64,000 bases of DNA from contig OZ250150.1 of the NCBI GenBank assembly GCA_965237675.1, positions 2,528,001 to 2,592,000 of the forward strand. Reading direction: 5' to 3'. Below, piece after piece: positions 7,736 through 60,729 of the stretch (position 1 is its first letter; every line of letters starts with the position of its first letter). The position numbers and the translations under genes are program-made. Below the pieces are notes generated by a model, which saw only the letters and a program-made list of their open reading frames with translations, was not told the origin of the DNA and searched no databases. This stretch comes from Candidatus Latescibacterota bacterium (GTDB lineage: Bacteria > Latescibacterota > UBA2968 > GCA-2709665).

Positions 7736-7875
7736 CTGGTTCCCTGAATGAGATGGATTCGACCGCCTTTGAGGTCGCACTTCGGAAAAACAACCTGAAT
7801 GATTCAGCGCGCCGGGGTCTGAGGACCGTTCGTTTCAAGGTAATGTGGAATGATGAGCCCGGAATCTCCAATACG

Positions 7876-10122
7876 TCAAAACGCAAATCCGATTGACGTA
7901 TAAACCTCGATATCCTTTCTTTGCGTGCTCACAATATCAATGCGAATGGGGCCAAAAATCTTCGTGTTGATATAACCCCCGATACCAAAACCATGAATGT
8001 TGGTATATGGCTGATCCGTATAGGCAGGAAAATAGTACCGCCCGCCCTGATAGAAAACGCCAATAGCGCTGCGCTGTATGGATTCCCAGAATCTCAGGTG
8101 GCTCCAAATAGAAATGCGCGCCGATACGAACCTGAAAGCTGAAAGTTCGTCTCGCCGGAGACCGACAACGCGCAATGCTGCGCTGCTCAAGTGTCCTGCA
8201 CCACCCAGCAGGAAGTTTTCATCAATCGGTGCGGGCTGTGTCACGTAGCCTCCGTGAGACCAGAAGCCCACACTCAGCTGCGGATGGGGGCTGGCGAAGT
8301 ACGCGAGCCGTGTCTGCACCTGCTTGTGTGAAAATGTCCGATGGACCCATTTTGCCTGCGTTTTAAAATAGAAGCCTTGTCTTGGCACAAACACATCGTC
8401 GCGCGTGTCGATACCTGCAGATAGCCAAAGGGCGGGTAGATAGTCGGACTCATATTCCTGGCGCTCATCGCGAATGAGCATATGCTCAAGTTGATACCCC
8501 AGGTTGATACCTCCCCAGCTATGGGACAGAATCTGCATGCCCAATCGCCCGCGAAGACGCCTCTCGTAATACGTTTGCTGGGGTTCTCCTTCATAATATG
8601 CCACCCGTTCTTGTTTCCAGCCGTGAATCTCCCCGAGAAGACTCAGCCCCTTGAATGAGCGAAAAACCAAATCCAATTCACCAAACTTCATGGTAGAGCC
8701 CAATAAACCGCGCAAATAAAACTCTACTACACGGCCATAGACATTTTGGTGTGCAAGCTCGGCCAGTGCCGAAACCCCAAAATCGTTGTCGTAACGAAGT
8801 CCCATTTTCAATTCACTTGGGGGGTTTTCAAGCACCTGAAAAACCACTTCGGTATAGTCTTCATGATAGATAACCTGGTAATCGACCGTTTGAAATAATC
8901 CCGTCGCATATAACCGGCCGGATTCACCTTCCAGTTCTCGAAACGACGTTGGCTTATTAATGAACTTTTCCAACCTTGCAATGGAAATGCCCCTTGTGTA
9001 GCGCTCCAAACCCTCAATCCGCACCTGGTCGATGACAATATCCGATGGTATATCGGCCCAGGTTCTAAAGTCGAAATCATCCGGCAATATCGACGTTCTT
9101 GACTTTCCAGCGCGTTTTGAAATGCCGAGCTCTTGCAGCGCTTTCCGGATCGCATCCAGATGTTTTTCGGCTTCTTCCTCGCCAATCGGGATCACAGTAT
9201 GGGACCGATCGAAATTGCCGCTGTCAAATCCTTTTAAATCGGGCACCATCAACACATGGGCAAGTTTTCGATTTACCATTTTCTTTTCTTCGATTCGAAA
9301 ACTGACAGCCTGATCGATGACGTCGATAAAATTCTCGAATTCGTGCATTTGAGTGCGCAAAGGGGTGGCACAATCCACGGCAATAACCAGATCAGCGCCG
9401 GCGTCCAATGCGACGTCTACAGGCAGATTGTTGACAATGCCGCCATCCACAAGAAGGGTTTGTCCTGTACTCACAGGCACAAATACCCCGGGGATAGAAA
9501 TACTCGCTCTGATTGCCGCGCCGAGCGAGCCGTCTTTTAGAACGACCTGTTCGCCAGCTACAATATCTGTTGCAATTGCGCGAAAAGGCGTTGGAAGGCG
9601 ATCGAAATCGTTTCGCGCCCGGTAGGTTGCGCCTATTGTCAATTGATAGAGAAAATGCTGGATTTTTTTGCCGGCAAAAATCCCATAGGGCAATTTCAGA
9701 TCCAATTTATCGACGCGCAATGCAAGCATCTGGCGATCAACTATCGGTTTGCGATGCAAATTCAACAGACGGCGGTCAGGGCTGTTGCTGGTCATTTCCC
9801 ACCAATCTGTTTCTACAACAATGCGTTCGAGATCATCAACAGAATATCCGGCAGCATACAATCCTCCCACCAAAGCGCCATAACTCGCGCCCACGATCAA
9901 ATCGATGGGTATGCCTTCGCGCTCGAGTACGCGCAACACGCCGATATGCGCCCCTCCGCGTGCGCCGCCCCCACTCAGCACGACCGCGACACGGGGCCTC
10001 TGATTCGCAGACGAAGGTAGCGTGCTGAACAGGGCAAAACCGAAACACAATAATAACACGCTCCGGACGAATGGACGCTGAACGGTTCCGCATTCTGTCG
10101 CGTGTATTTTCTCGCCCATCAT
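7876..10122 (-). CDS. Patatin-like phospholipase-POTRA-Omp85 protein (PlpD-like, type Vd), paralogue 1
   Basis: LSGGGARGGAHIG, GASYG, DGG; POTRA; barrel ending IGFAF. Confidence 0.85.
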   Translation of the reverse strand: MMGEKIHATECGTVQRPFVRSVLLLCFGFALFSTLPSSANQRPRVAVVLSGGGARGGAHIGVLRVLEREGIPIDLIVGASYGALVGGLYAAGYSVDDLERIVVETDWWEMTSNSPDRRLLNLHRKPIVDRQMLALRVDKLDLKLPYGIFAGKKIQHFLYQLTIGATYRARNDFDRLPTPFRAIATDIVAGEQVVLKDGSLGAAIRASISIPGVFVPVSTGQTLLVDGGIVNNLPVDVALDAGADLVIAVDCATPLRTQMHEFENFIDVIDQAVSFRIEEKKMVNRKLAHVLMVPDLKGFDSGNFDRSHTVIPIGEEEAEKHLDAIRKALQELGISKRAGKSRTSILPDDFDFRTWADIPSDIVIDQVRIEGLERYTRGISIARLEKFINKPTSFRELEGESGRLYATGLFQTVDYQVIYHEDYTEVVFQVLENPPSELKMGLRYDNDFGVSALAELAHQNVYGRVVEFYLRGLLGSTMKFGELDLVFRSFKGLSLLGEIHGWKQERVAYYEGEPQQTYYERRLRGRLGMQILSHSWGGINLGYQLEHMLIRDERQEYESDYLPALWLSAGIDTRDDVFVPRQGFYFKTQAKWVHRTFSHKQVQTRLAYFASPHPQLSVGFWSHGGYVTQPAPIDENFLLGGAGHLSSAALRVVGLRRDELSAFRFVSARISIWSHLRFWESIQRSAIGVFYQGGRYYFPAYTDQPYTNIHGFGIGGYINTKIFGPIRIDIVSTQRKDIEVYTSIGFAF

Positions 10123-11217: not shown

Positions 11218-14200
11218 ATGTTAAATCTGGCATTGTACAGAAATGGCAGCCGGCCGTACGTGAGCAGCATTTCGTACAACCACCACGCGTCCAGGATCAA
11301 CGATGGAATCAGGCCGGACGAGCAGGCCTCCACGAGCGATACGGCCTGGGCCTCGGCTTCGGAACGATTGCCGCAGTGGGCGGCGGTTGTGTTTCCGAGC
11401 CTCGCCCGGGTTGACCGGTTGGTGATTTACTGGGGGAAGGGACGTTTGCCCGAGTCCTCCCGCAAGGTCGAAATTCAGGGCCGGGTTGGAGGTGCGTGGG
11501 TTGCCATCGCGGCGCGGGACATCCCGGAGCCCGAGCGGAAGACGGTGTTTGTTTTCAATCCCGTGCAGGTCGAGGCGGTACGGATATGGCAGGACGTGGA
11601 CTGTGGCGCGGAAGCGGCGCCGGGACGGATGCACGTGGCTCAGTTCGAGGTCTACGGTGCCTTCGTGGAAGGTCCAGCGGTGGATTGTCTGAAGATCCGG
11701 GATGCGCTCCGGGAGGAATGGGAGGACAATTTTCGAGCGGCAAGACGGGAGATCACGCGGGAGGTGTTGGACCGCATCGATCGGTCGCCCGGGGAACGTC
11801 CGTCGGTCGGGCCGGTGGGAGCGGACGAAATCGCGCGGGCGCGGCGGAACCGGGCTGCGACGGTGTGGGGCAGGAAGCAGGCGGAGAAGATCCTGAAAGA
11901 CGCGTCGTGGTGGTTGGACAAGGGCGATGAGTTTATCTACGGGATGATACCCACGCGGAATCCGCGAGCGATTTCGCCGAGTTACGAGCGGGGTTGTCCG
12001 ATCCACGGCGGAGGTCGCAAATGCATGCGGACGAATACGGCGCTGGAGTACCGGTGGCAGTGCGTAAACGGTGGGGAGTGGTGGTACAATGGAGCGGTCG
12101 TGGAGAATCCGTCCACGGGAGAGCCTGTGGAGGTGTGGGACGACGACGATGGATGGACCGCACCGGAGGGTTTCGCCCACCCGGGTACGATCTACCATTT
12201 CAATTCGGCGTGGCGCTACTATGTTCTTTCCAGGCTGTTTTTCCATCCGTACGAGTTGACGATTGCGTCTGAAGATGCGTATACGGGGGATACGGCCATC
12301 GTGCAGTTGTCCCATGCCTACGCGATAACGGGCGACGAGCGGTATGCCCATATCGTCGGAGTCATGCTCAACAGGCTGGCGGAAGTCTACCGTTTCTACA
12401 ATGGAACGGTGGACGAGCAGCGGCCGTTGACGCGAGGGTATCTGGTTCAGGTGAGTTGGGAGGAGAATCCGATTTACGACTGCATGGCGGCTTACGACCT
12501 GGTGATGGATTCGATGTTGAAAGACGAAGCGCTCCTCGCATTTTTCAGGTCCAGGGGCAACTGTGACTACAACCGGGACGGTCGAGTGGATTTTGAGGAC
12601 ATTCGGTACAATATCCGGCACAATCTGTTTGGCTACATGTATGAGTGGCTGCACCGGGCAATGGCGATTCAGAAAGGGGACTATATCATCCGGGAGGGAA
12701 TGGTGCTCTGGGCGCTGGGCGCCGTGCTTGGAAACGAGGAACTGGTCGAAGAGGCCACCGACGGACGTTACGGGCTGGCCGTGAATATGTCCAACAACAC
12801 GTTCCGGGACGGAAAGTGGTGGTACGATTCCCCCGGCTATGCCGTGGGAGCGGTGACGCAGGTAATTCTGGATCGCCTGTTTTCGATGAAGGGCACGGAA
12901 CGGATCGAGGATCACGGGCTGCGGATCAGAGAATCTATCGAGTTCGCCCGAAACATCGTATGCGACGGCCGGATTCCGGCAATTGGCGATACGGGCGGCG
13001 CGGATTCGAGGATGAAGGTGCTGAATCCGTTCGCGAACTGCGAAATCGACGAACTGGCCTACATACATACCGGGGATGGGGCCTATCGAAATCGGCTGCT
13101 TTCGCTTTCAGAAGGGAACGTGGACCGGATCAGGGAGCGGTACGCCGATGCCAACCTGCTGTTTCATGCCGATCCGATCCGAGGGAAGTCCCGGCCTTTT
13201 GTGCCGCGAACGACGGTTTTTCATGATTCAGGGATTGCGATCCTGAGGACGGGAGCGAACATCGCGTCGCGGAAGCACCTGGTGTTGAATTACGGAAAGG
13301 GCAACGGCGGCCACGGTCACCGGGACAAGCTGGGGATCAACCTCATCACGTACGGTTATGATCTGGCGTGTGATCTGGGTTATCCGACCACGTTTACACA
13401 CAAGAAAGTGGACGGTTGGGAGAAGCACACCGCCAGCCACGCGACCGTTTGCATCGACGGGCAGGCTCAGGAGATTGCCACGGGCAGCCTGCGGTTCTAC
13501 GGGCGGACGCCAGGAATGCAGGCCATCTGCGCATCCGGAGAAACGGCGTATCCGGGATGCGCGGAGGTGTACGAACGGACCCTTGTGATGGTGGATGCGC
13601 CAGGCTCCGACGCGTATGTCGTCGACCTGTTCCGCGTGAGCGGTGGAACGACACACGACTATATGTTCCGGAGCCTGAGCGGGGATGACGGCGAGGACTT
13701 CAGGATGGAATTTCCCGAGGCCGCGGAGCCGTTGCGCCAGGTGCGGGGGACCGCCGCGGGGGAGGATGTCGCATTTGGCACCGCGCCAGGATTGGGATTT
13801 ATCAGGGATGTCGGCCGGACGGTCTGTGATGGGTTGTGGTCCGCCACGTGGCGGGTCGGCGATGAGGAGAATACGGGCATACGGCTGACGATGCTGGGGG
13901 ATCGCAATCGGGAGATTATCAACGGGAAGGGCGAGGGATACGGATTTTTCGGGCAGAGCCCGTGGGATGCGTGCGTGGCCGTCCGGCATGCGAGCGATGG
14001 CGGCGAAACGATTTTCGCGGGCGTACTGGAGCCGTTTCAGGGCGACACCTTCGTCAAGTCGGTGGAAGCATTGAGCGTCGCCGGCGGCATCGGCGCGAAG
14101 GTATGCCTCGATGGAAGAACCGACTACGTGTTTCGCCGATTGCAGAACGGTTCGGTTTGTACAGCGGTGATCGACGGGGACCACGTGGCGTTCGACGCGG

Positions 14201-49641: not shown

Positions 49642-52600
49642 TTACGGAAGCACGATTTTTCCCAGGTATTCCCTGAGTTTGGGCGGAACGTGCTTTCGTA
49701 TCAGGCTCTTCTCCAACGTCCAGGCCGTTTCCGCGTCGAGCTTCTTTTCAAAGTGAACTGATTTTCCTTCGTACCGAGCGACGGGTTCCCCATCGCGAAA
49801 CAGGATTCGGTTTCCGGGAATCGCCGGGATACGCCGGCCCGGCGTAACGACACCGACCAGGTTGACCGGATCGCAGGCGCTGACCGATACGAGTTCGCCC
49901 CGTCTCTTCTCCCGTTTCAGGGACCGGATGACGGTAATCGCCGCTGGAAGTGCGTACTGCTCTCCCCATCTCTCCACAAATCGGCCTCCCCGGACCTCGC
50001 CGCGATCCTCCATCCGCCTCAAGACCCGGACGAGGTCGCGCCACGGCGGTATGCCGCTCTCTCTGGCCAGTACCCGTCTGAAGACAACCCCGTAACGTTT
50101 CAGAAGAATTCGTGCGCATTGTTCGATATCGGCCTGATCCTCGAATTCGGGTTCGATCAGGGACCACCGGCCCGCCTGTTCCATGCCGAAGACCGGCCCC
50201 CGATTCCGCCGGGACCGCACCTTGAATTTCTCCGGTATCAGAAGCGCCCGCAGCCCCGCGAAGCTGTCGCACGTCAGCTTTCCGGCCGCCACCAACTCGG
50301 CAATGGCGCTCTCGATCTCGCTCCTGAGCATTTTCGACCTGGCAAGGATGTCGTGGTAAAACAGCGCGCCGCCGGCTTTCAGACACTCGAATACCCGTTG
50401 CGCGGACGGGGTCAGGACCGGCGTGCACGACTCCGCAGGGCGGAACGGCCAGGCCCCGAACGTGGTTCGATTGACCAGGGTGATGGGCGTGGTGCGGATG
50501 GGGGTATTTCCCGCCCTGGCGCTTTGTGTCCTGAGATAACGGCCCCACATGGTCTTTCCCGATAAGCAACAGGTATCCAGCCATAAGTGGTCGTAGTCCT
50601 TGATGCGCGAAGGCAGGACGTCGCTCTCCCACGCAATGGCGGGACAGGAGAATCCGTCGAGTTGATCCAGAACTTCCTTAAGCGCTTCGGGGCCTCCTTT
50701 CCGGGTGTCCTCCGTCAGGTTGTGCCAACGGAGTAGAAACCGCACGTAATCCGACGAGGAAATGGGTCTGATTGCCCGACGCAGCTTTTCGAGCGTATAT
50801 CGGTGGATACGCGCAAGCAGGCGGCGCTCGCACCATTCCGTTTCGGCGTCGGAAGGCAGGTCCGGGGAGAAGTGGCCTCTGATCGCGAAGCCCTCGGATT
50901 CCAGTGCGTGAAGAACCTGGTCAATCCGCTGCCTGGAAAGGCCCATATCCCTTGCGATTCGGGACGCGGTTGTCGGCCCCAGAAGCTCTATCCTGCCTCT
51001 GACCACGTCCGTGAGTACCTGTTCCGGATCCTCCGACGAAAATTCCCGGATGGAGTCGTGAACCGCCGTTGCGCCGCGTCCGACGGCTTCACCGTACAGA
51101 ACCTCGAATTGAGGAATCCTCTCCACGGCAATCCAGAGTTTCGGTCCGTCCCTCGGGTCGGCGGGTACCGCCTGACCGGACTCCACGAGCGACGCCAGGA
51201 GCGGGCGCCAGGTTCCATCGCCGCTTTCCATCACTTCCGTGTCGGTCAAGAACCCGTGCATCACCAGAACGTCATACAACTCATCCGCGTCTGTAACCGC
51301 GGGCCAGGCCTCCGCTTGCACCGCCTCGATCGCGCCTTTCTCGAGCTTGCCCAGCTTCCTGGCGTCTTCGGGTTCGAGCCGCCTGCGTGTTCGAACGGCC
51401 TGCACCCGCCTTTCCTCCAGGGGAGCGTCATCCAGAAACGCATACGGCCGCGCGTTGAGAATGCCTTCGGACATCGGGGAGGGTTCACGGAGATCGCGGG
51501 CGGACACTTCGATTTCACCGTTGTGAATCCGCTGGAGGAGACGTTCCAGAGCATCCACGTTCATCGCCTCGTGAAGGCAGTCGTGAATGGTCTGGTATAC
51601 GAGGGGGTGGTCCGGCACCTCGCGGTCGCCCGGGATGTTTTCCAGACAGGCGAGCTGGTCAGGGAATATCAGGGCCAGCAGGTCCTCAGCGTCGGAACGC
51701 TGGATCTGAGGGGGAACGCGTTCTCCGCCCCTTCGCCTGAGCACAGCCAGCGCCGTGCAGGCGTTCCAGCGCCATCGCGCCTGGAACATCGGCGCATCCA
51801 GCAGGGCCTGTACCAGAACCTCCCGAACCGTCCGGTCGTTCAGATAGCCGACCACTTCCTCAAGAGGGAAACTGTGCGTGGGCCCGAGGGAGAGGACCAG
51901 ACTCTCTTCGTTCGCCGCCGCCTGGAGTTCGAAGTTGAACTTGCGGCAGAATCGTTTTCGAAGGGCGAGCCCCCACGCCCGGTTCAACCGGTTTCCGAAA
52001 ACCGAATGAATGACGAGGTGCTGGTCGCCCACCTCGTCGAAGAAACGCTCCAGAACGATGTGCTTCTGCGACGGTACCAGGTCCAGAGATGCCTTTGTGG
52101 CAGCCAGATACGTGACCACCTGATCGGCCGCATCCGCGCTTGCGCCGGCCTCGTCCGTCAGCCAGGTGACGGCGTCCGTTTTCCATTCTCCGGATCCGTT
52201 TTCGTCGAGTTCATCGAGGTTTATCCGCGCAGACACTTCTTCGCGGACACGGGAGACCGACGTTGAGAGTTCCGCGGATCTGCCCGGGGCTTCGCCGATC
52301 CAGAACGGCATCGTGGGGGGAAGGCCGTCTGCGTCTTCGACACGCACCTTTCCGGTTTCCACCTTGAGGATGCGCCACGAAGCCGTGCCCAACTGAAAAA
52401 TGTCTCCCGGCAGGCTCTCCACGGCGAAATCCTCGTGTACGGAGCCGATCTGGACCCCCGACGGTTCGAGGCGCACGTCGTAGTCGAACTGGTCGGGGAT
52501 GGTTCCTCCCGACACGGTCGCGTTGAGACGGGCGCCTTTCTTGGCCCTCAATGTCCGGGTGACCGGATTGAAGTGGAGGTAGGACCTTCGCGTGCCCCTT

Positions 52601-53973
52601 CTGAAGGTGAATCCTTCCACGAGCATTTGAACGACGCCGTTGAATTCTTCAATGCTCAGATTTCGATAGATGAATGACTTCCTGACGAGGTCGTAGAGCG
52701 CGTCTGACGTGCTATCCTCGCACGTCACCTCCGCCACGATCTGCTGGGCGAGCACATCCAGCGGTTTCTCTGGAAAGGGAAGATTGTCCAGTTCGCCCCT
52801 GCGGACACTGTCAAGCAGCGCCACCGCTTCGACCAATTCGTCTTTGGTAAGCGGGTACAGCTTCCCCCTCGGGGTTCCCGCAAGGGTGTGGCCGGAACGG
52901 CCAACGCGCTGGAGCAGCGTTGCAATGGATTTGGGGGATCCGATTTGAACAACCAGATCGATGGATCCCACGTCGATGCCCAGTTCGAGGGAGCCGGTGG
53001 CCACCAGGGCCCTCAGGGCGCCGGCCTTGAGCCTCGTCTCCGCGTCCAGGCGCTTTTCCCTGGACATGCTCCCGTGGTGGGCGGAGACGATTTCGTCTCC
53101 AAGCCTGGCGGACAGATGATGCGACAGGCGTTCGGCCATGGAGCGGGTGGGGACGAATATGAGGGTGGTCTGATGTTCGGCGATGGTATGTTCCAGGGAT
53201 TGATGGATCTCTTCCCAGACCTCGTTGGCCATCACTGCCGTGAGCGGCGATTCCGGCAACTCGATGTCCAGTTCCAACTCACGCCGGTGCCCGATGTTGA
53301 GGATTTCGCAGGGTTCCGCGCCGCCGGTAAGAAAATGCGCCATCCGCTCGATGGGCTTCTGGGTGGCGGAAATGCCGATCCGGTGGAGCGGGTTCCGGCT
53401 GAGGCGCGCCAGCCGCTCCATGGAAATCGACAGGTGGGCGCCGCGTTTGTTTCCGGCGACGGCATGGATCTCATCCACGATCAACGTGCCCGCGCTGCTC
53501 AGCATTTCCCTTCCGCCGTTGCTTGTCAGGAGAAGGTAGAGAGATTCCGGCGTGGTCACCAGGATGTGGGGGGGCTTCCGGACCATCTTTGCCCGTTCGG
53601 TGCCCGGGGTGTCGCCGGTCCGGACCATCGCCCGCACGCCGGCGTCGGGGTAGCCGTTCTGTTCCAGGAGCGCCTTTATGCCCTTGAGCGGCACCTGCAG
53701 ATTGCGATGGATATCGTTGCTTAGCGCCTTCAGGGGCGATACATAGACGACGTGGGTTCGGTCCTCCAGCGTGCCGTCGAGACGGCGCTCGAAAAGGTCG
53801 TTCAGGATCGCCAGAAATGCGGCGAGCGTTTTTCCCGATCCGGTCGGCGCGGACAGCAGGACATTTTTTCTGTCCAGGATTTCCGGCCAGGCCAGAGACT
53901 GAATTTCGGACGGGTCGCTGAAATTCTGATTAAACCACTTCCGGACAACGGGATGGAAGTCTTCCAGGGGCAT
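49642..53973 (-). CDS. lhr: Lhr-family ATP-dependent helicase (long form)
   Basis: APTGSGKT, SPLKAL, TTPESL, DEIH, SAT, LELGIDVG, QRVGRSGH; C-terminal LLKRYGV..RGGRFV winged-helix region. Confidence 0.92.
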   Translation of the reverse strand: MPLEDFHPVVRKWFNQNFSDPSEIQSLAWPEILDRKNVLLSAPTGSGKTLAAFLAILNDLFERRLDGTLEDRTHVVYVSPLKALSNDIHRNLQVPLKGIKALLEQNGYPDAGVRAMVRTGDTPGTERAKMVRKPPHILVTTPESLYLLLTSNGGREMLSSAGTLIVDEIHAVAGNKRGAHLSISMERLARLSRNPLHRIGISATQKPIERMAHFLTGGAEPCEILNIGHRRELELDIELPESPLTAVMANEVWEEIHQSLEHTIAEHQTTLIFVPTRSMAERLSHHLSARLGDEIVSAHHGSMSREKRLDAETRLKAGALRALVATGSLELGIDVGSIDLVVQIGSPKSIATLLQRVGRSGHTLAGTPRGKLYPLTKDELVEAVALLDSVRRGELDNLPFPEKPLDVLAQQIVAEVTCEDSTSDALYDLVRKSFIYRNLSIEEFNGVVQMLVEGFTFRRGTRRSYLHFNPVTRTLRAKKGARLNATVSGGTIPDQFDYDVRLEPSGVQIGSVHEDFAVESLPGDIFQLGTASWRILKVETGKVRVEDADGLPPTMPFWIGEAPGRSAELSTSVSRVREEVSARINLDELDENGSGEWKTDAVTWLTDEAGASADAADQVVTYLAATKASLDLVPSQKHIVLERFFDEVGDQHLVIHSVFGNRLNRAWGLALRKRFCRKFNFELQAAANEESLVLSLGPTHSFPLEEVVGYLNDRTVREVLVQALLDAPMFQARWRWNACTALAVLRRRGGERVPPQIQRSDAEDLLALIFPDQLACLENIPGDREVPDHPLVYQTIHDCLHEAMNVDALERLLQRIHNGEIEVSARDLREPSPMSEGILNARPYAFLDDAPLEERRVQAVRTRRRLEPEDARKLGKLEKGAIEAVQAEAWPAVTDADELYDVLVMHGFLTDTEVMESGDGTWRPLLASLVESGQAVPADPRDGPKLWIAVERIPQFEVLYGEAVGRGATAVHDSIREFSSEDPEQVLTDVVRGRIELLGPTTASRIARDMGLSRQRIDQVLHALESEGFAIRGHFSPDLPSDAETEWCERRLLARIHRYTLEKLRRAIRPISSSDYVRFLLRWHNLTEDTRKGGPEALKEVLDQLDGFSCPAIAWESDVLPSRIKDYDHLWLDTCCLSGKTMWGRYLRTQSARAGNTPIRTTPITLVNRTTFGAWPFRPAESCTPVLTPSAQRVFECLKAGGALFYHDILARSKMLRSEIESAIAELVAAGKLTCDSFAGLRALLIPEKFKVRSRRNRGPVFGMEQAGRWSLIEPEFEDQADIEQCARILLKRYGVVFRRVLARESGIPPWRDLVRVLRRMEDRGEVRGGRFVERWGEQYALPAAITVIRSLKREKRRGELVSVSACDPVNLVGVVTPGRRIPAIPGNRILFRDGEPVARYEGKSVHFEKKLDAETAWTLEKSLIRKHVPPKLREYLGKIVLP

Positions 53974-54890: not shown

Positions 54891-55664
54891 TTAATGTCCG
54901 TGGCGGGGGTTCACAAGTGTCAGGTGCAGGGCCGCGTCCAGCCCTGCAAGATGAGCGGCCGTTCGCTGCGCCATCGGCCATGCCGTGGGCGTCTCGAAGA
55001 TGAGCACGTGATCCGCGTGGTATCGAAGAACGTATGGCACGATCCCGCCCGTGCCCCACGACGGCGCGACCTTGTAGACGCCCCTTGAGATGGGGAGGTC
55101 GTTCTCTTCCTCCTCCCCGTCGAGATCGATGGCGCCCACCTTCTCGACCTCTCGGACGATCTCCGGTCCGGCCCAGCGTTCATCGCGACGGCCTTCGTAC
55201 ATATAGAATCCGGTGGCCTCCCAGTCTTCGTGGAAATCCACGTACAGGTCGAAACGCTTTCCCTTCAATATCCGCCTGGCAATTTCACCCTCGCGAACGC
55301 CGACCTCCGAGAATGACCGGTTGATATCTTCACCCTGGCGGTTTTCCCTCTTATTGTGGACGTATCCCCAGGGATTCACACACGGCAGGACGAGAAACGT
55401 AAAGTGCCGGAGCAGATCCGCCGGGTCCCGTTCGAGAAACGCGAGAACCGCCTCCGGCCCCGCCGGTTCGTCGCCGTGGACCCCGCCGGAGAGAAGCACC
55501 CGCTTTCTGCCGCGAGGGTCACCGCCTAACCGGATACAATAGATGGGATAATCGCCCACGAATCCGGCCGTCTCCATCTCCATATCCGCCAGGTTCAGTG
55601 CCTCCAGACGCCGGGTCAAACGACCGAAATCATGGCCTTCAATTTTTAAATCTTCCGGTTTCAT
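54891..55664 (-). CDS. M14-family metallocarboxypeptidase / AstE-AspA-like protein
   Basis: SGGVHGDEPAG, PCVNPWG, DINRSF, DFHED, FETP. Confidence 0.85.
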   Translation of the reverse strand: MKPEDLKIEGHDFGRLTRRLEALNLADMEMETAGFVGDYPIYCIRLGGDPRGRKRVLLSGGVHGDEPAGPEAVLAFLERDPADLLRHFTFLVLPCVNPWGYVHNKRENRQGEDINRSFSEVGVREGEIARRILKGKRFDLYVDFHEDWEATGFYMYEGRRDERWAGPEIVREVEKVGAIDLDGEEEENDLPISRGVYKVAPSWGTGGIVPYVLRYHADHVLIFETPTAWPMAQRTAAHLAGLDAALHLTLVNPRHGH

Positions 55665-55798
55665 GGATCTGCCCGTTTCCTGAGATGGTAAGCCTGATTA
55701 ATACATGCAATTGTCACGTTTAGCTGCTTTATTCGCCAATCAATCAATGCCACCCCAGCATAAAGGCTTGTCGAGCCGTTGAGGATGCGGGTGTGAAG

Positions 55799-56176
55799 GT
55801 GGGGCAGACATTCCTGTCTGCCCTTCTCGTGTTTACGCAACGCTTCGTTCGACTCCCCCTCTCCTCGCAGGAGAGGGGGCCGGGGGGAGAGGTCCTTCTG
55901 CCGTAATGCAGACGGAAGTGATCCAATTGATAGCGCCGCCCTTTTTCCAGTGGGGGAGACGGAGGCGGGTCGTGGCGTGCCCGGACACAGGATTCTGAGG
56001 TTTCGGTTTGATGTATGTGAGCAGACAGGAATGTCTGCTCCACCTTCTTAAGCATTGGTTCGAGGTATCGCTTGAGCTCGTGAACCATCTGAGACAAATC
56101 GCCATTACTTGCTTCAAATTCCAGAAACTGCAAGGTGTCGCTGTAACCTGTCTGCGTGCGGTGACGCACAGGCAGG
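55799..56176. repeat. Cluster of REP-like palindromes
   Basis: Inverted pair GTGG(G/A)GCAGACATTCCTGTCTGC at 55799-55823 and 56019-56043; CCCCCTCTCCTCGCAGGAGAGGGGG at 55855; CCTGTCTGCGTGCG..CGCACAGGCAGG at 56147-56176. Confidence 0.8.
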
Positions 56177-56366
56177 CTGGTCAGGACGCCCCCGTCGGAG
56201 GCGCCTTCCGTATTCTTACGGCATCGACTTGCAGGAGAGACCCTGTCATGATTATCTTGAACGTACATGGTCGTTTTCTCCCAATTCATTGTTATAACAT
56301 TACTTGTGTCACCATAATACAATGACTTGGGTAAGGGAACTACCATTTTTTAGTGAATTATTGAGG

Positions 56367-58700
56367 TTAGGTAAGCGTCCGATAACGATCTAATGCCGTT
56401 CGTTCGAATGCCTTACCTCTTATTAGCTTCGATCCATCCATTCTGACCATCTTGAAAGCACTATCCAGGCCCCACGCATATCCAATGTCCACAATTGCTT
56501 CACCTGATGCTTCTAACGACCGCCGCGTGGGGATCTTGTTGCTATTGGAAATCTCGACCAGTTCCTGAATACGGTACCGGTCCGAGATTAGAATTGGCGC
56601 GCAGCATTCAATTGTTCTGCCCAACATGAGCGTCGCAAGACGCGCTGAGTCTGTAGGAAGCTCGTCCCACGTATTCCAGATAACGGGTTTGCAGTTTAAC
56701 TGTTTCGCTCGATCTATAACGCGAAAACACTCAGTTGCATCGAGCATCTGTTCATTTTGCACAACACCCACGTACACTGATCCCTGGTCGGTCTCCAGAG
56801 CACATCCGGGATCGTCTACGGTCCTCCATCTGGACCGGCTAAACACTGCCAGTCCTTCGTCGATAAGTCGAACACGGATTGGCATCTTTGGATTCGAGTT
56901 AGGTGGATTCTGTGGTCTTGGTCTCGGCAGGTCTTCGGCTCGTGGAATCCGACCCCACACCAATTCTCCATCAAGTAAACCCATATCCAGATCTACAATG
57001 TAGACCGTGTCCGATTCTGTGCATTTTGACAATGGAAGTGAATTCCTGGTACCTGCTTTTCTGGCTCTGAGTTCATTACCATCTGGCGAAAACGCAAAAG
57101 GATGAGTTCTGGTCGCAACCTTCTTCACACGGTGATGGAGCGTACATAGTGCGAACACGCGATTTTCTACCGCTCTTAGACGAAGGATTGATGACCATTT
57201 GATGTCAACAACGTTGAAGTAGCTTGGATTGATCCATATACAGGCGCCACGTTTTGCGAGAAAACGTGGCAACAGACCCAGATATTGGTCGTGGCAAATC
57301 GTGGCGCCAGCCCGGACGCCGACCAGGTCGAAGGTCGGAAGCATCACGTGTGGACTCCAGTCGGAACTCTCAAATGCAACTGCGCCTGCCGTAGAATGCT
57401 TCACGTATATTCGCGAATGCGATCTATCGGGATCTATACGTTGCAGAACCTCCCAGGTGCGCCCGGTTGAGTCGACACTATTGTCGGTCGCGCCGACCAG
57501 CAAAGGCGCATCCAGATCCGCAGCGAGTTCCTTTAGTAAGTTGATACGTTTGGAATCGGTCGCGCTAATGTATCCTTCCGGAAAGAGAACAAAGTCTACG
57601 CTTTCGCCTGCAAAGGATGCGTGGGTGGGTATGACGGGCTTTTGGGCATTATCTCCAAGAGGTACGATTCCGAGTAGCGCACTATGGTTTACCTGAGGAA
57701 ACACGAGTGCCGCTCGCAGTACAGAAGTCGTTCGAGCAGCGGAGTTATGCCTTTTGGCCATCGTTTGGCTTGCTCTTAAGGGCTTCTGCGTTGAACTGTG
57801 AAGGCCGATAAAAGCGGAGAATCGCTGCTTGTCGATGTTGCTGTCCGGGTCGAGCGAGCACCAGACCAAATCGTGGGCGTACATTCGAACCGTTGGCTGA
57901 AGACCCTTGATCGATGGGACGAGATCCCGAAGAGCGTCATACCAGGCCCGTTGTTCGTCACGGAAAGGGGGATCGTTGTCCTTTGCATCGTGGCGTTCAC
58001 ATTGTGATATCCACTGCTTTTTTGAAAACCCTAAGGCGAGGTCGTCCGGGTACGCGCTAAGAGCCAGTTTCCGTGGGGTCGTAAAGTGTTGGCTCTCATC
58101 GAACTCCAGGATGAATCCGGGTTCAGGTACCCAAAAATCGCACGCCGCCAGCGTTTCCGCTCTCACAAAGTCCTGCAAACCAAAGCCACGGTATGTCTCC
58201 AGAACCGTTACAAGTTTCCTTAGTGTGGTGTAGATCGGGGTTCCCATGTAGGAGCAGACGTGAGTTGACCAGCCAAACCTGTGGTTTAGACGGCACTCTC
58301 CGTAAATGCGCTCCAGTAGGTCATGAACCCGGTTTTTGCATTCGGCACACCGCTCTGAATGCCGTTCTGACCGAATACCAGACGTCCTCTTTTTGGACCG
58401 ATTAGCCGGGGACGTGACAGGGCTGACTCGATGGGTACCACCGCATTTGCACTCGACAATTTCGAAGCCGTGGGTCGTGAGGAAGCCATTGGACTCGGCG
58501 CCGCCCGAGAATTCGTATGAGGGCAGGAATCGACCCGTAGCTATCTGGTGAGCCAATGCGATCGTGTACTTGGGTGGAAAGTGAAAGTCATCCACTAACA
58601 AACAGTAATTCCGCGCACTCCTCCTTGGCGGAACACCCTCACGGCCAATCCGCCGCATAGCCGCGACTATGTTTGCTTTCGTGATGAATGACGGAACCAT
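56367..58700 (-). CDS. Multidomain protein: McrA-type N-terminal head, nuclease-like domain, carbon-nitrogen hydrolase (nitrilase) domain
   Basis: PPKYTIALAH...FSGG..SNGFL...GFEI head; CDFWV..FILEFDESQHF; FPEGY / YVKH / TICHD triad and RAVEN; lower GC than its flanks. Confidence 0.7.
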   Translation of the reverse strand: MVPSFITKANIVAAMRRIGREGVPPRRSARNYCLLVDDFHFPPKYTIALAHQIATGRFLPSYEFSGGAESNGFLTTHGFEIVECKCGGTHRVSPVTSPANRSKKRTSGIRSERHSERCAECKNRVHDLLERIYGECRLNHRFGWSTHVCSYMGTPIYTTLRKLVTVLETYRGFGLQDFVRAETLAACDFWVPEPGFILEFDESQHFTTPRKLALSAYPDDLALGFSKKQWISQCERHDAKDNDPPFRDEQRAWYDALRDLVPSIKGLQPTVRMYAHDLVWCSLDPDSNIDKQRFSAFIGLHSSTQKPLRASQTMAKRHNSAARTTSVLRAALVFPQVNHSALLGIVPLGDNAQKPVIPTHASFAGESVDFVLFPEGYISATDSKRINLLKELAADLDAPLLVGATDNSVDSTGRTWEVLQRIDPDRSHSRIYVKHSTAGAVAFESSDWSPHVMLPTFDLVGVRAGATICHDQYLGLLPRFLAKRGACIWINPSYFNVVDIKWSSILRLRAVENRVFALCTLHHRVKKVATRTHPFAFSPDGNELRARKAGTRNSLPLSKCTESDTVYIVDLDMGLLDGELVWGRIPRAEDLPRPRPQNPPNSNPKMPIRVRLIDEGLAVFSRSRWRTVDDPGCALETDQGSVYVGVVQNEQMLDATECFRVIDRAKQLNCKPVIWNTWDELPTDSARLATLMLGRTIECCAPILISDRYRIQELVEISNSNKIPTRRSLEASGEAIVDIGYAWGLDSAFKMVRMDGSKLIRGKAFERTALDRYRTLT

Positions 58701-58856
58701 GATTCTTCTCGCTTGCGAGGTGTTGGTCTGCTAAATTCATTCACCCTGGTGAAACTGCCAACCAGGGCGCTGATACTGCAAGGCTGATTGGGCGGAGCCC
58801 GGCCAGATCGATCCGTACTCAGAAATCGCATGAAACCCGGTCGTAATTCCCCAGTC

Positions 58857-59681
58857 CTACCGTTTTGGCGCCGGTGGATTGTACCGTATGGCGTGGTAGT
58901 CGTAGTCGCTCGTAATGGGAACGGGCCTCCCGTCCAGAAACGCCCATCTCCCCACGTCGCACGAGGATGCCCGGACGAATCCGTTGATGTACGACCGCCG
59001 CGGCCGGTCCGTCGTATTCGGCGACGAGCCGTGAACCGTGTACGACGTAAACATCAGCACGTCTCCCGGCATGGCCTCGCAGGCCACGGCCGAGGAGACG
59101 TCCATCTGCGCTTCGACGCCCCCTTTCGCGTACCGTTTCACTTTCAAGTTGCCCAGTCTGTGGCTCCCCGGGACGACGTGCAAACAACCGTTTTCAACAT
59201 TCGCCTCGTCCACCACGACAATCGTCTGTACATAGTTGTTGACCTGATCGCGAAACGCGGGCGTCGGGCGGATGTCCTGGTGCCACGGAAATTCGATCTC
59301 GCCACCGGGCATTTTGAAGTTGATCTGATTGATATATTGCTTAAGAGACGTTCCGATCAACGGGTCCAGCAGGGCTGGAAACTTCGGACTGTTGCGGATC
59401 TCCTCGAATGCCGGATGAATTAGAGCGGGCCACTGGACCTTGCGAAGATATCGAACGGCATCCGGCCCTGCCATCGACCCGGGGGTCTGCAGGTGAATAT
59501 GCACGTCGTTCCGCCTGCCTTTGAGAATTTCATCCGGAAGATCCGTCCGCGATGCCAATTCCAGGATGTAGTCGTAACCCTCGCGCAGGCGCGCAATCTC
59601 ATCCCGGTCAAATACGCCTCGGGCCACGTGGTATCCCTGTTCCCGGAATGCTTCGACGTCTTTCTTGCTCAGAGTCGTCAT
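58857..59681 (-). CDS. Phytanoyl-CoA dioxygenase (PhyH) family protein
   Basis: FREQGY, WHQD, ENGCLHVVPGSH, VHGS.PN...RR. Confidence 0.9.
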   Translation of the reverse strand: MTTLSKKDVEAFREQGYHVARGVFDRDEIARLREGYDYILELASRTDLPDEILKGRRNDVHIHLQTPGSMAGPDAVRYLRKVQWPALIHPAFEEIRNSPKFPALLDPLIGTSLKQYINQINFKMPGGEIEFPWHQDIRPTPAFRDQVNNYVQTIVVVDEANVENGCLHVVPGSHRLGNLKVKRYAKGGVEAQMDVSSAVACEAMPGDVLMFTSYTVHGSSPNTTDRPRRSYINGFVRASSCDVGRWAFLDGRPVPITSDYDYHAIRYNPPAPKR

Positions 59682-59919: not shown

Positions 59920-60729
59920 CTATATCAGGAACGGAAGGTCCGTCTGGTCCGCAAGAACCTTGATCGAGCGGGGTTGACGTGGAATCCTTGAGATAAGGCC
60001 CAGCTTTTCCAATCTCTTGAGCATGCTGTTTACAGTTGGCGCCGTGACGCCAAAGTAGTGCTGGAAATCGGTCCGGGCTGGCGGAATGCCGTTAATCTTG
60101 GTGTAATAATGGATAAGGGCCAGATATTGTCCTTGCTTGTAAGTATAGGAAACGGTCTCCACGTAACTGACGATTTCGTCACTATCGAACTGGGCTAAGT
60201 ACTGATTGACAAGATCAATAGGGAAGTTTTCGGGATCGAAATTGCTCCCAAACCAGTCGATGGTCGAGGAATGCTCCGGGTGATCGCTGTCCGCCAGGGC
60301 CTCCAGGAACTCCGCATATCCCGAGATTCCGCCTACATCCTCAGGCGGGCACGATCGTTCACCCGCCAAACAGGTGGGATAAGATACCCCCGGTTCAGGC
60401 TCCTTGATTGCTTCCACTTTAACGAGATGCTCCCAACCGTCTCCAAAATCATATTGGTAGAGAAATTCGACGCCGGTGAATGGTGCAACCTGCTCCAGCG
60501 TGATTGCGTCTTCATTCAGCGTGTCCTCATCCCAATCGTAAAGCGCCGGGTCACATATTCCGTAGCGGGAGTCTGCTATGCGAAACTCGTGGAGATGGGA
60601 GTTGGTCCACCCCATCACGATTTGAAGTATCAAATGGAGGTCGCCGAGGGAGCACTCCCCGTCAACGGCAACACGTCTCCATATCGGCGGAGCAATGTCC
60701 ATCAAGGTGATCTTGAGTTGGTAGATCAT
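59920..60729 (-). CDS. pRiA4b ORF-3-family protein fused to a LexA/MarR-like HTH
   Basis: YQLKITL..PPIWRR, MGW..HLHEF, YDFGDGWEH, CPPEDVGG; C-terminal KQGQYLA..FGVTAPTVNSML..LE..GLI.R...RSI. Confidence 0.85.
   Translation of the reverse strand: MIYQLKITLMDIAPPIWRRVAVDGECSLGDLHLILQIVMGWTNSHLHEFRIADSRYGICDPALYDWDEDTLNEDAITLEQVAPFTGVEFLYQYDFGDGWEHLVKVEAIKEPEPGVSYPTCLAGERSCPPEDVGGISGYAEFLEALADSDHPEHSSTIDWFGSNFDPENFPIDLVNQYLAQFDSDEIVSYVETVSYTYKQGQYLALIHYYTKINGIPPARTDFQHYFGVTAPTVNSMLKRLEKLGLISRIPRQPRSIKVLADQTDLPFLI

Follow-up and report, generated by a model that had tools for sequence, protein, structure and literature searches.

A horizontally mobile four-domain protein from Latescibacterota couples a ScoMcrA-type head to a predicted Vsr-like nuclease and a paired amidase, with a possible role in defence

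Gene and domain architecture

We analysed a 64,000-nucleotide stretch of the genome of a Candidatus Latescibacterota bacterium (assembly GCA_965237675.1, contig OZ250150.1, positions 2,528,001 to 2,592,000), hereafter the window, and followed up one gene on its minus strand (56367..58700) that a reading of the sequence, made without database searches, had put forward as a candidate single-gene defence enzyme. In the list of open reading frames (ORFs) and their translations, the gene starts with ATG and encodes 777 amino acids (aa) plus a stop codon (P0001). The protein consists of four domains: a ScoMcrA_N head, a predicted Vsr-like nuclease domain, an amidase of Nit type and, last, a second amidase-like domain that is degenerate. 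All motifs quoted in the sequence-only reading were found in the translation, with ITKANI, PPKYTIALA and FSGG inside residues 1-80, HSERC at 114, CDFWV at 187, EFDESQH at 199, RDEQRAW at 247, and the nitrilase motifs FPEG at 373 (Glu375), YVKH at 432 (Lys434) and ICHD at 468 (Cys469). Among 8000 candidates scored, 725 were homologous at E ≤ 1e-3, and the best 120 of these shared 56-93% identity, mostly over their full length. Because of these 725 homologues and a pairwise dN/dS of 0.09-0.33 among orthologues in each of the four domains, the 777-aa ORF is a real gene under purifying selection and not a chance reading frame.

GC content is lower over the gene than beside it, as had been stated (0.47-0.54 over 56000-58499 compared with 0.58-0.64 in the flanks, in 500-nt windows). 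RNA-library contigs from three runs (X19-X21, two studies) covered parts of 56984-57896, but at 92-218 nt and a depth of 2-5 these are too little for calling the gene expressed, and DNA carry-over is possible. The 777-aa protein had no NCBIfam match beyond far sub-threshold ones of nitrilase type, and no cluster name was on record for the ten homologues looked up.

The first domain (residues 1-90; 58431..58700, minus strand) is a small α/β domain with the conserved motifs PPKY and FSGG-ESN-FL-GF, for which a ScoMcrA-type head had been proposed. This proposal was borne out by sequence profile, structural alignment and the annotation of relatives. A profile built from 104 relatives of residues 1-305 had residues 4-97 of ScoMcrA (5zmm_A) as its sole solved match (E 2.4e-6), and the same chain was the top row for the head when VIA-align was run against 48,161 chains (Z 7.6, rmsd 4.9, 75 aligned, 23% identity). 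Foldseek with the N-terminal two-domain model returned nothing at E ≤ 1e-3, its top row being 5zmm at E 0.075. PF26345 (Pfam 38.1), whose name ScoMcrA_N was taken from the Atlas output, is precomputed on 116 of the best 120 homologues, and we read the membership of the gene product from these homologues together with the family profile. The AlphaFold2 model of residues 1-305 had a mean pLDDT of 92.5, with the head mostly above 90 and a linker around residues 96-111, between the head and the nuclease-like domain, disordered. Homology to ScoMcrA transfers no activity to the head, because the authors of that structure call the function of its head unknown (PMC6224610).

The second domain (residues 113-300; 57801..58364, minus strand) is predicted to be a DUF7255/Vsr-like PD-(D/E)xK nuclease. 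Its putative active site comprises D188, E199, D201 and H205, in a motif of the form D...ExD(E)xQH that resembles the DUF559 pattern, and there is a conserved extra helix (D241...R247-DEQ-R251-AWY-D255). The domain opens with a Cys/His cluster (H114-x3-C118-x2-C121); a structural zinc site is present in Vsr. In an alignment of 103 divergent relatives, E199, D201, H205, D241, R247, R251 and D255 were invariant and C121, D188, E202 and Q204 nearly so, as was C118 in the 104-row alignment. VIA-align of residues 117-303 against solved structures ranked Vsr first (1cw0; Z 6.6, rmsd 3.8, with 112 residues aligned). Two proteins with RAP domains came next, at Z 6.4 and 5.8; I-Bth0305I (Z 5.5) and 3hrl, which is a putative endonuclease-like protein (Z 5.2), were also listed, as were many other PD-(D/E)xK nucleases. 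RAP-type Vsr-like domains can be RNA binders.

Pfam searches for Vsr or DUF559 gave no match at E ≤ 1 with the whole protein or at E ≤ 10 with residues 101-320, and the family profile found no PDB match for the nuclease-like domain by sequence. DUF7255 (PF23913) scored 15.9 bits on the whole protein and 20.5 bits on the domain alone, under a cut-off of 27, and exceeded that cut-off in the relative P0268 (31.5 bits). In the nearest Atlas cluster (69 members, 747 aa), CN_hydrolase was present on 100%, ScoMcrA_N on 97% and DUF7255 on 68% of members. The structural matches favour the fold of the earlier call of a Vsr/DUF559-like endonuclease, and by sequence the domain lies near DUF7255, not Vsr or DUF559; the comparison of models suggests that DUF7255 has a Vsr-like nuclease fold, which would be a new fold assignment.

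The third domain (residues 325-590; 56931..57728, minus strand) is a carbon-nitrogen hydrolase of the nitrilase superfamily. Pfam CN_hydrolase (PF00795) matched residues 377-544 with 39.6 bits against a cut-off of 23.2 (E 4.9e-10), and phmmer searches of the PDB found Nit2 (2w1v, E 2.9e-8), yeast Nit3 (1f89, E 2.2e-6) and NitFhit (1ems, E 9e-5), which by sequence are the closest solved relatives of the domain. The Glu-Lys-Cys triad had been described as intact, and in agreement with the Pfam match Glu375, Lys434 and Cys469 were kept in 54 of 54 aligned homologues; a second glutamate, Glu444, was kept in 48 of the 54. HMMER places the Nit2 lysine opposite R430, four residues ahead of the invariant K434, so that the assignment of Lys434 rests on conservation.

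The last domain (residues 605-777; 56370..56888, minus strand), which ends in a conserved LDRYRxL tail, corresponds to a C-terminal stretch of about 200 aa that had been left unassigned. Pfam had no match to the last 188 residues, and hhalign found no significant similarity between this domain and the catalytic nitrilase domain (probability ≤ 1.1%). An AlphaFold2 model of residues 590-777 (pLDDT 85.7) had 22 Foldseek matches at E ≤ 1e-3, of which all those listed belonged to the nitrilase superfamily (best 5h8l_I, 8.7e-5), and the top 23 VIA-align rows were likewise all from this superfamily (Z 9.4-5.6; 2w1v_B with Z 9.4, rmsd 3.2 and 121 aligned). By these two comparisons of the model, the stretch can now be described as a degenerate CN-hydrolase-like fold, with the alpha-beta-beta-alpha sandwich of the nitrilase superfamily. 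Within it W675, N676, W678, R695, E716 and K722 were invariant and C699/C700 nearly so, and in the alignment, read without residue-level structural superposition, the invariant residues do not follow the canonical Glu-Lys-Cys order.

We submitted the two amidase-fold domains as separate chains to complex prediction, in which the pair scored 0.92 and the best of three controls 0.00; among reference pairs, 58 of 80 solved complexes attain the mark for a pass, as do 2 of 110 that are mismatched. Contacts agreed between runs to at least 76%, partner pLDDT was at least 86, and the predicted interface is formed by the conserved tail at the C-terminus together with helices downstream of Cys469. The C-terminal domain is therefore predicted by the models to pack on the catalytic domain like the partner in a nitrilase dimer. 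Because both parts belong to one chain and nitrilase dimers have been solved, the docking pass may mirror known structures, and it would indicate likeness to the canonical nitrilase dimer, not proof of it. A fused pseudo-subunit replacing the nitrilase dimer partner was not met in the literature consulted, in which no dedicated search for one was made.

Module exchange and mobility

The combination of domains is widespread and not unique to this assembly, with hundreds of full-length homologues. Relatives of the N-terminal 305 residues numbered 1294 at E ≤ 1e-3, counted as representatives of a 50% clustering, and 197 at E ≤ 1e-30, and the bare module (about 190-300 aa) was common among them. 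We examined 94 C-terminal tails: 15 grouped with the nitrilase tail of the query and 60 fell into one other family, leaving 19 in three small clusters (3, 3 and 2) and 11 singletons. One singleton, P0268, has a GIY-YIG nuclease domain as its tail and hence two nuclease folds. The 60-tail family remained blank by Pfam, PDB sequence profiles, hhalign and PHROG; the Pfam scan of N-terminal-module relatives covered ten representatives, and PDB profile searches with the class B and C alignments found the ScoMcrA head only.

The commonest partner tail is about 290 aa long and reaches about 460-530 aa in headless proteins (P0128, P0141 and P0190; alignments A4 and A5). This tail has conserved 'K.YP' and 'C.DL' motifs and an Atlas row with CN_hydrolase on 31% of members; hhalign against the catalytic nitrilase domain gave a probability of at most 1.1%, and the identification of this tail as a nitrilase was set aside as a lead only.

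Forms without the nuclease were frequent as well, with 17 of 40 rows pairing the head with CN_hydrolase and lacking the nuclease. We built a FastTree phylogeny of the amidase region from 86 rows, taking all short forms and every second one of the listed homologues. Explaining the long/short label on this tree took 5 changes, of which well-supported branches force at least 3, and two short-form clades had diversified. Purifying selection also acts on the nuclease-less forms (dN/dS 0.13-0.28). The head, the nuclease and the amidase pair are separable modules, because tails vary, bare modules occur and nuclease-less forms have arisen at least 3-5 times.

Presence of the gene in the phylum was patchy, with 13 of 168 genomes and 2 of 49 genera matching the N-terminal profile (E ≤ 1e-10); a separate search matched 14 of 61 genomes, one of them merely with a distant nitrilase. 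Intact full-length copies occurred in six genomes of the phylum, and other copies showed varied forms of decay. One orthologue (genome G008, L018 8902-10383) is interrupted by inserted DNA that encodes a DDE transposase (DDE_Tnp_1_4, E 2.6e-33), the nuclease domain was lost in frame in G013 and G002, head and nuclease were both lost in G004, G043 retains an N-terminal remnant of 334 aa at the same site as in G047, and G005 holds gene pieces with stop codons. Outside the phylum, 53%-identical headless copies were found in two Gammaproteobacteria genomes by a contig scan that used a single-protein query and yielded only 2 loci; an alignment query would have reached further. Five IMG/VR contigs carry relatives, confirmed among 27 pattern-matching stretches.

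Within the window, the gene and about 0.7 kb downstream of it form a low-GC insert of about 3.2 kb (55642..58875, boundaries approximate), defined as such because its two flanking genes lie side by side in 5 of 5 genomes of the genus that lack the gene. Homology of the flanks ends at 58876-58881 and restarts at 55634-55641, and the insert lies between a PhyH-family gene and an M14-peptidase-like gene, with the same flanks always found within the genus. Taken together, the gene is horizontally acquired, mobile and patchy in distribution.

Downstream of the gene and outside the protein, the insert also contains a repeat resembling a miniature inverted-repeat transposable element (MITE; 55795..56047) with 27-nt inverted terminal repeats that are 96% complementary. 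This repeat has 66 matches, spread across the genome, its contigs have very high depth in the sequencing runs, and it accounts for most of the extra 0.7 kb and for the lowest-GC stretch downstream. Immediately downstream of the gene, an ORF of 200 aa (55744-56346, minus strand) overlies the repeat. It has an odd composition and no Pfam match and is unlikely to be a gene; the similar ORFs of two other genomes are probably due to shared repeat DNA. Over 55640-56370 we found no credible ORF and no Rfam match above threshold, and promoter and terminator scans were at chance level.

Genomic neighbourhoods and competing explanations

Simple ORF calling at 88 loci gave 610 ORFs, among which the family itself was the sole wide cluster (93 ORFs, 87 loci) and the next-largest neighbour cluster held 4 ORFs in 2 loci. 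A conserved neighbour was found at none of the 87 loci; the gene stands alone, as the sequence-only reading had it, and the neighbour comparison places its homologues in no conserved metabolic operon. The 148 neighbours within two genes represented 131 different Pfam families, with N6_Mtase, N6_N4_Mtase and Eco57I found 3 times each, HNH, PDDEXK_1 and HEPN_Swt1 twice each, and matches to the PADLOC mad2 model in 8 neighbours. Nitrilase-bearing members adjoin a TrwC relaxase at one locus outside the genus (L058) and phage-type integrases at two (L059 and L023), with an HNH protein also present at L023. In the other genus that has the gene (G047, locus L017), the gene lies between a Mrr_cat-like protein that scores exactly at its cut-off and a D12-class adenine methyltransferase (7753-8700 and 11653-12786 of that locus), and at locus L057 the neighbours are a GDSL lipase and unknowns only.

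In the window, the conserved flanks include an Lhr-type helicase of 1443 aa and a PRiA4_ORF3 fusion (49642-53973 and 59920-60729, minus strand). The PRiA4_ORF3 protein is fused to a LexA/MarR-like winged helix, and this plasmid-type family was present in all same-genus genomes examined.

Anatomy, mobility and module shuffling together fit best with a stand-alone, horizontally mobile, defence-type enzyme that has nuclease and amidase effectors, a reading we hold tentatively and at somewhat less than an even chance. The activities, substrates and defence role set out here are what we infer from those observations. The ScoMcrA_N head would act as a shared N-terminal targeting or sensing domain whose ligand may be nucleic acid, and a flexible basic linker would join it to the Vsr-like PD-(D/E)xK nuclease, which may nick or cleave nucleic acid in a Mg-dependent manner. 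The degenerate domain is predicted to dock on the helices after Cys469 like the second subunit of a nitrilase dimer, with the conserved C-terminal tail predicted to reach the active-site region, such that one polypeptide would constitute a self-contained 'pseudo-dimeric' amidase. This amidase might hydrolyse a small amide-bearing metabolite or a nucleotide-related compound, as has been proposed for the nitrilase effector of DRT1, and nuclease and amidase under one head could jointly block an invader.

Several observations weigh against a defence-type enzyme. The earlier suggestion of single-gene defence found no support in any known defence model or modification-sensing domain: none of the families in PADLOC-DB 2.0, DRT classes included, matched at E ≤ 1, and Pfam found no modified-DNA reader domain (SRA, SBD, PUA/EVE, NEco and others). 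No reverse-transcriptase domain was found by Pfam either. The genes next to it in the window are ordinary ones (Lhr helicase, M14-like peptidase, PhyH, HIT) and form no defence island, most neighbours elsewhere are unrelated to defence, and the methyltransferase signal consists of raw counts without a background rate and is not a statistical enrichment. Neither 72,556 plasmid records nor 50,697 phage records gave any match by tblastn, and there was no PHROG match. The Z values for the nuclease fold are middling (at most 6.6) and may be generic, as the tool cautions for values under 8, with a match list that is nonetheless coherent, and the purifying selection on nuclease-less forms implies that the amidase does not need the nuclease. 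By analogy, the metabolite-repair enzymes to which the Nit-branch relatives belong would fit a metabolic role equally well.

An accessory function in the repair or processing of nucleic acids or nucleotides, not immunity, is the alternative that survives best, and we consider it unlikely. A Nit-like amidase would here strip an amide or nitrile from a nucleotide, base or cofactor that is damaged or modified. The head and Vsr-like domain would recruit the amidase to nucleic acid or else cut out the lesion, in the way that Vsr acts on T:G mismatches. Such a function is consistent with the metabolite-repair enzymes Nit2, Nit3 and NitFhit being the closest solved relatives of the amidase and with a repair nuclease, Vsr, being the top structural match of the nuclease domain, as it is with the complete lack of defence-model matches and the persistence of head-plus-amidase forms that lack the nuclease. 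The gene also lies near the Lhr repair helicase in the genus, among ordinary genes, but this linkage is local synteny only, and empty sites retain Lhr. A repair enzyme would further have to be reconciled with a patchy presence in 13 of 168 genomes and clean absence from 5 same-genus genomes, with low GC, spread across phyla and frequent decay, and with the integrases, relaxase and restriction-modification genes found alongside elsewhere, which would be unusual for a repair function.

The precise presence or absence of the gene at one intergenic site, in a cassette without a recombinase, would also be expected of a selfish or addictive element, that is, a free-standing homing-type nuclease gene or toxin module kept at that site with the amidase domains as cargo or self-control. 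The resemblance of the nuclease fold to the homing endonuclease I-Bth0305I (Z 5.5) and the frequent inactivation of the gene point the same way, yet purifying selection acts on all four domains of the 777-aa protein, insertion sites differ between genera and across the 87 metagenomic loci, nuclease-less forms persist and diversify, and no conserved antitoxin-like partner gene accompanies the family at those loci, which makes this account improbable.

We are similarly doubtful that the protein is a regulated metabolic amidase whose N-terminal domains have no catalytic role and only bind nucleic acid or a ligand, regulate the enzyme or mediate oligomerisation. It is automatically annotated as a 'carbon-nitrogen hydrolase family protein', its amidase pair is conserved without the nuclease, and RAP proteins, whose type of domain can bind RNA, are among the structural matches; against this, hundreds of divergent relatives that differ in their tails keep the putative nuclease residues invariant or nearly so, there is no conserved metabolic operon partner, and the distribution is patchy and mobile.

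Least probable, and in our view very improbable, is a DNA-directed amidase, suggested by the domain combination, that the head would guide to invading DNA and that would strip an amide or nitrile from hypermodified bases before the Vsr-like nuclease cuts the converted site, a new class of immunity by a single protein. If true, it would be the first restriction enzyme to strip a protective DNA modification chemically; carbamoylmethyl-adenine and the 7-cyano- or 7-amido-7-deazaguanine bases already raised in the sequence-only reading are purely speculative candidates for its substrate.

Relation to known enzymes and significance

The defence-type enzyme that we favour shares parts with several characterised systems and coincides with none. 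ScoMcrA (Sco4631; 5ZMM), a type IV restriction endonuclease dependent on phosphorothioate or 5mC, has a homologous N-terminal head, and in both proteins a small head and a flexible linker are followed by nuclease-bearing modules (for ScoMcrA, PMC6224610). ScoMcrA continues with SBD, SRA and HNH domains, in contrast to the query, which has none of these and instead carries a PD-(D/E)xK domain and two nitrilase-fold domains. Residues 117-303 align, at middling Z values, with the fold of Vsr and its kin (1CW0, 3HRL, I-Bth0305I and RAP); compared with Vsr and DUF559, the query has the extra invariant helix RDEQRAWYD and a sequence nearer DUF7255, and a domain of its type always occurs within larger modular proteins or alone at about 190-300 aa.

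The Nit enzymes (mouse Nit2 omega-amidase 2W1V, Nit3 1F89 and NitFhit 1EMS) share the triad and the second glutamate with the query. They are free-standing homodimers of about 260-300 aa that act on small metabolites, unlike the query, in which an active and a degenerate copy stand in tandem behind DNA-enzyme domains. The reverse transcriptase-nitrilase defence systems DRT1/UG5 also fuse a nitrilase-superfamily domain to a nucleic-acid enzyme in a single gene. In DRT1, the nitrilase domain is a required defence effector whose substrate is unknown, and C-terminal residues complete its active-site pocket (PMC13275509). The query differs in having no reverse transcriptase and in having a predicted intramolecular pseudo-subunit as the partner of its amidase in place of a tetramer or filament.

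We found no paper on the family in the literature on PF26345, DUF7255 or a fusion of nitrilase, nuclease and head. The statement that no described protein combines all three parts accordingly holds for the literature searched and not for the databases, where proteins of this architecture carry automatic names. Every single domain belongs to a known kind; newly described are their combination, the fusion of a pseudo-subunit and the fold assigned to DUF7255.

That domains of the nitrilase superfamily can be effectors of phage defence is a recent finding, made in DRT1 (PMC13275509). In the family described here, such a domain is fused to a restriction-type head and a predicted nuclease, without a reverse transcriptase, and a large superfamily is built around the N-terminal module, numbering 1294 representatives at 50% clustering. 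Structural models suggest folds for two blanks in the databases, DUF7255 and the C-terminal nitrilase-like pseudo-subunit. With its natural nuclease-less and amidase-less versions, the family offers a simpler, genetically dissectable system in which to address the substrate of defence amidases.

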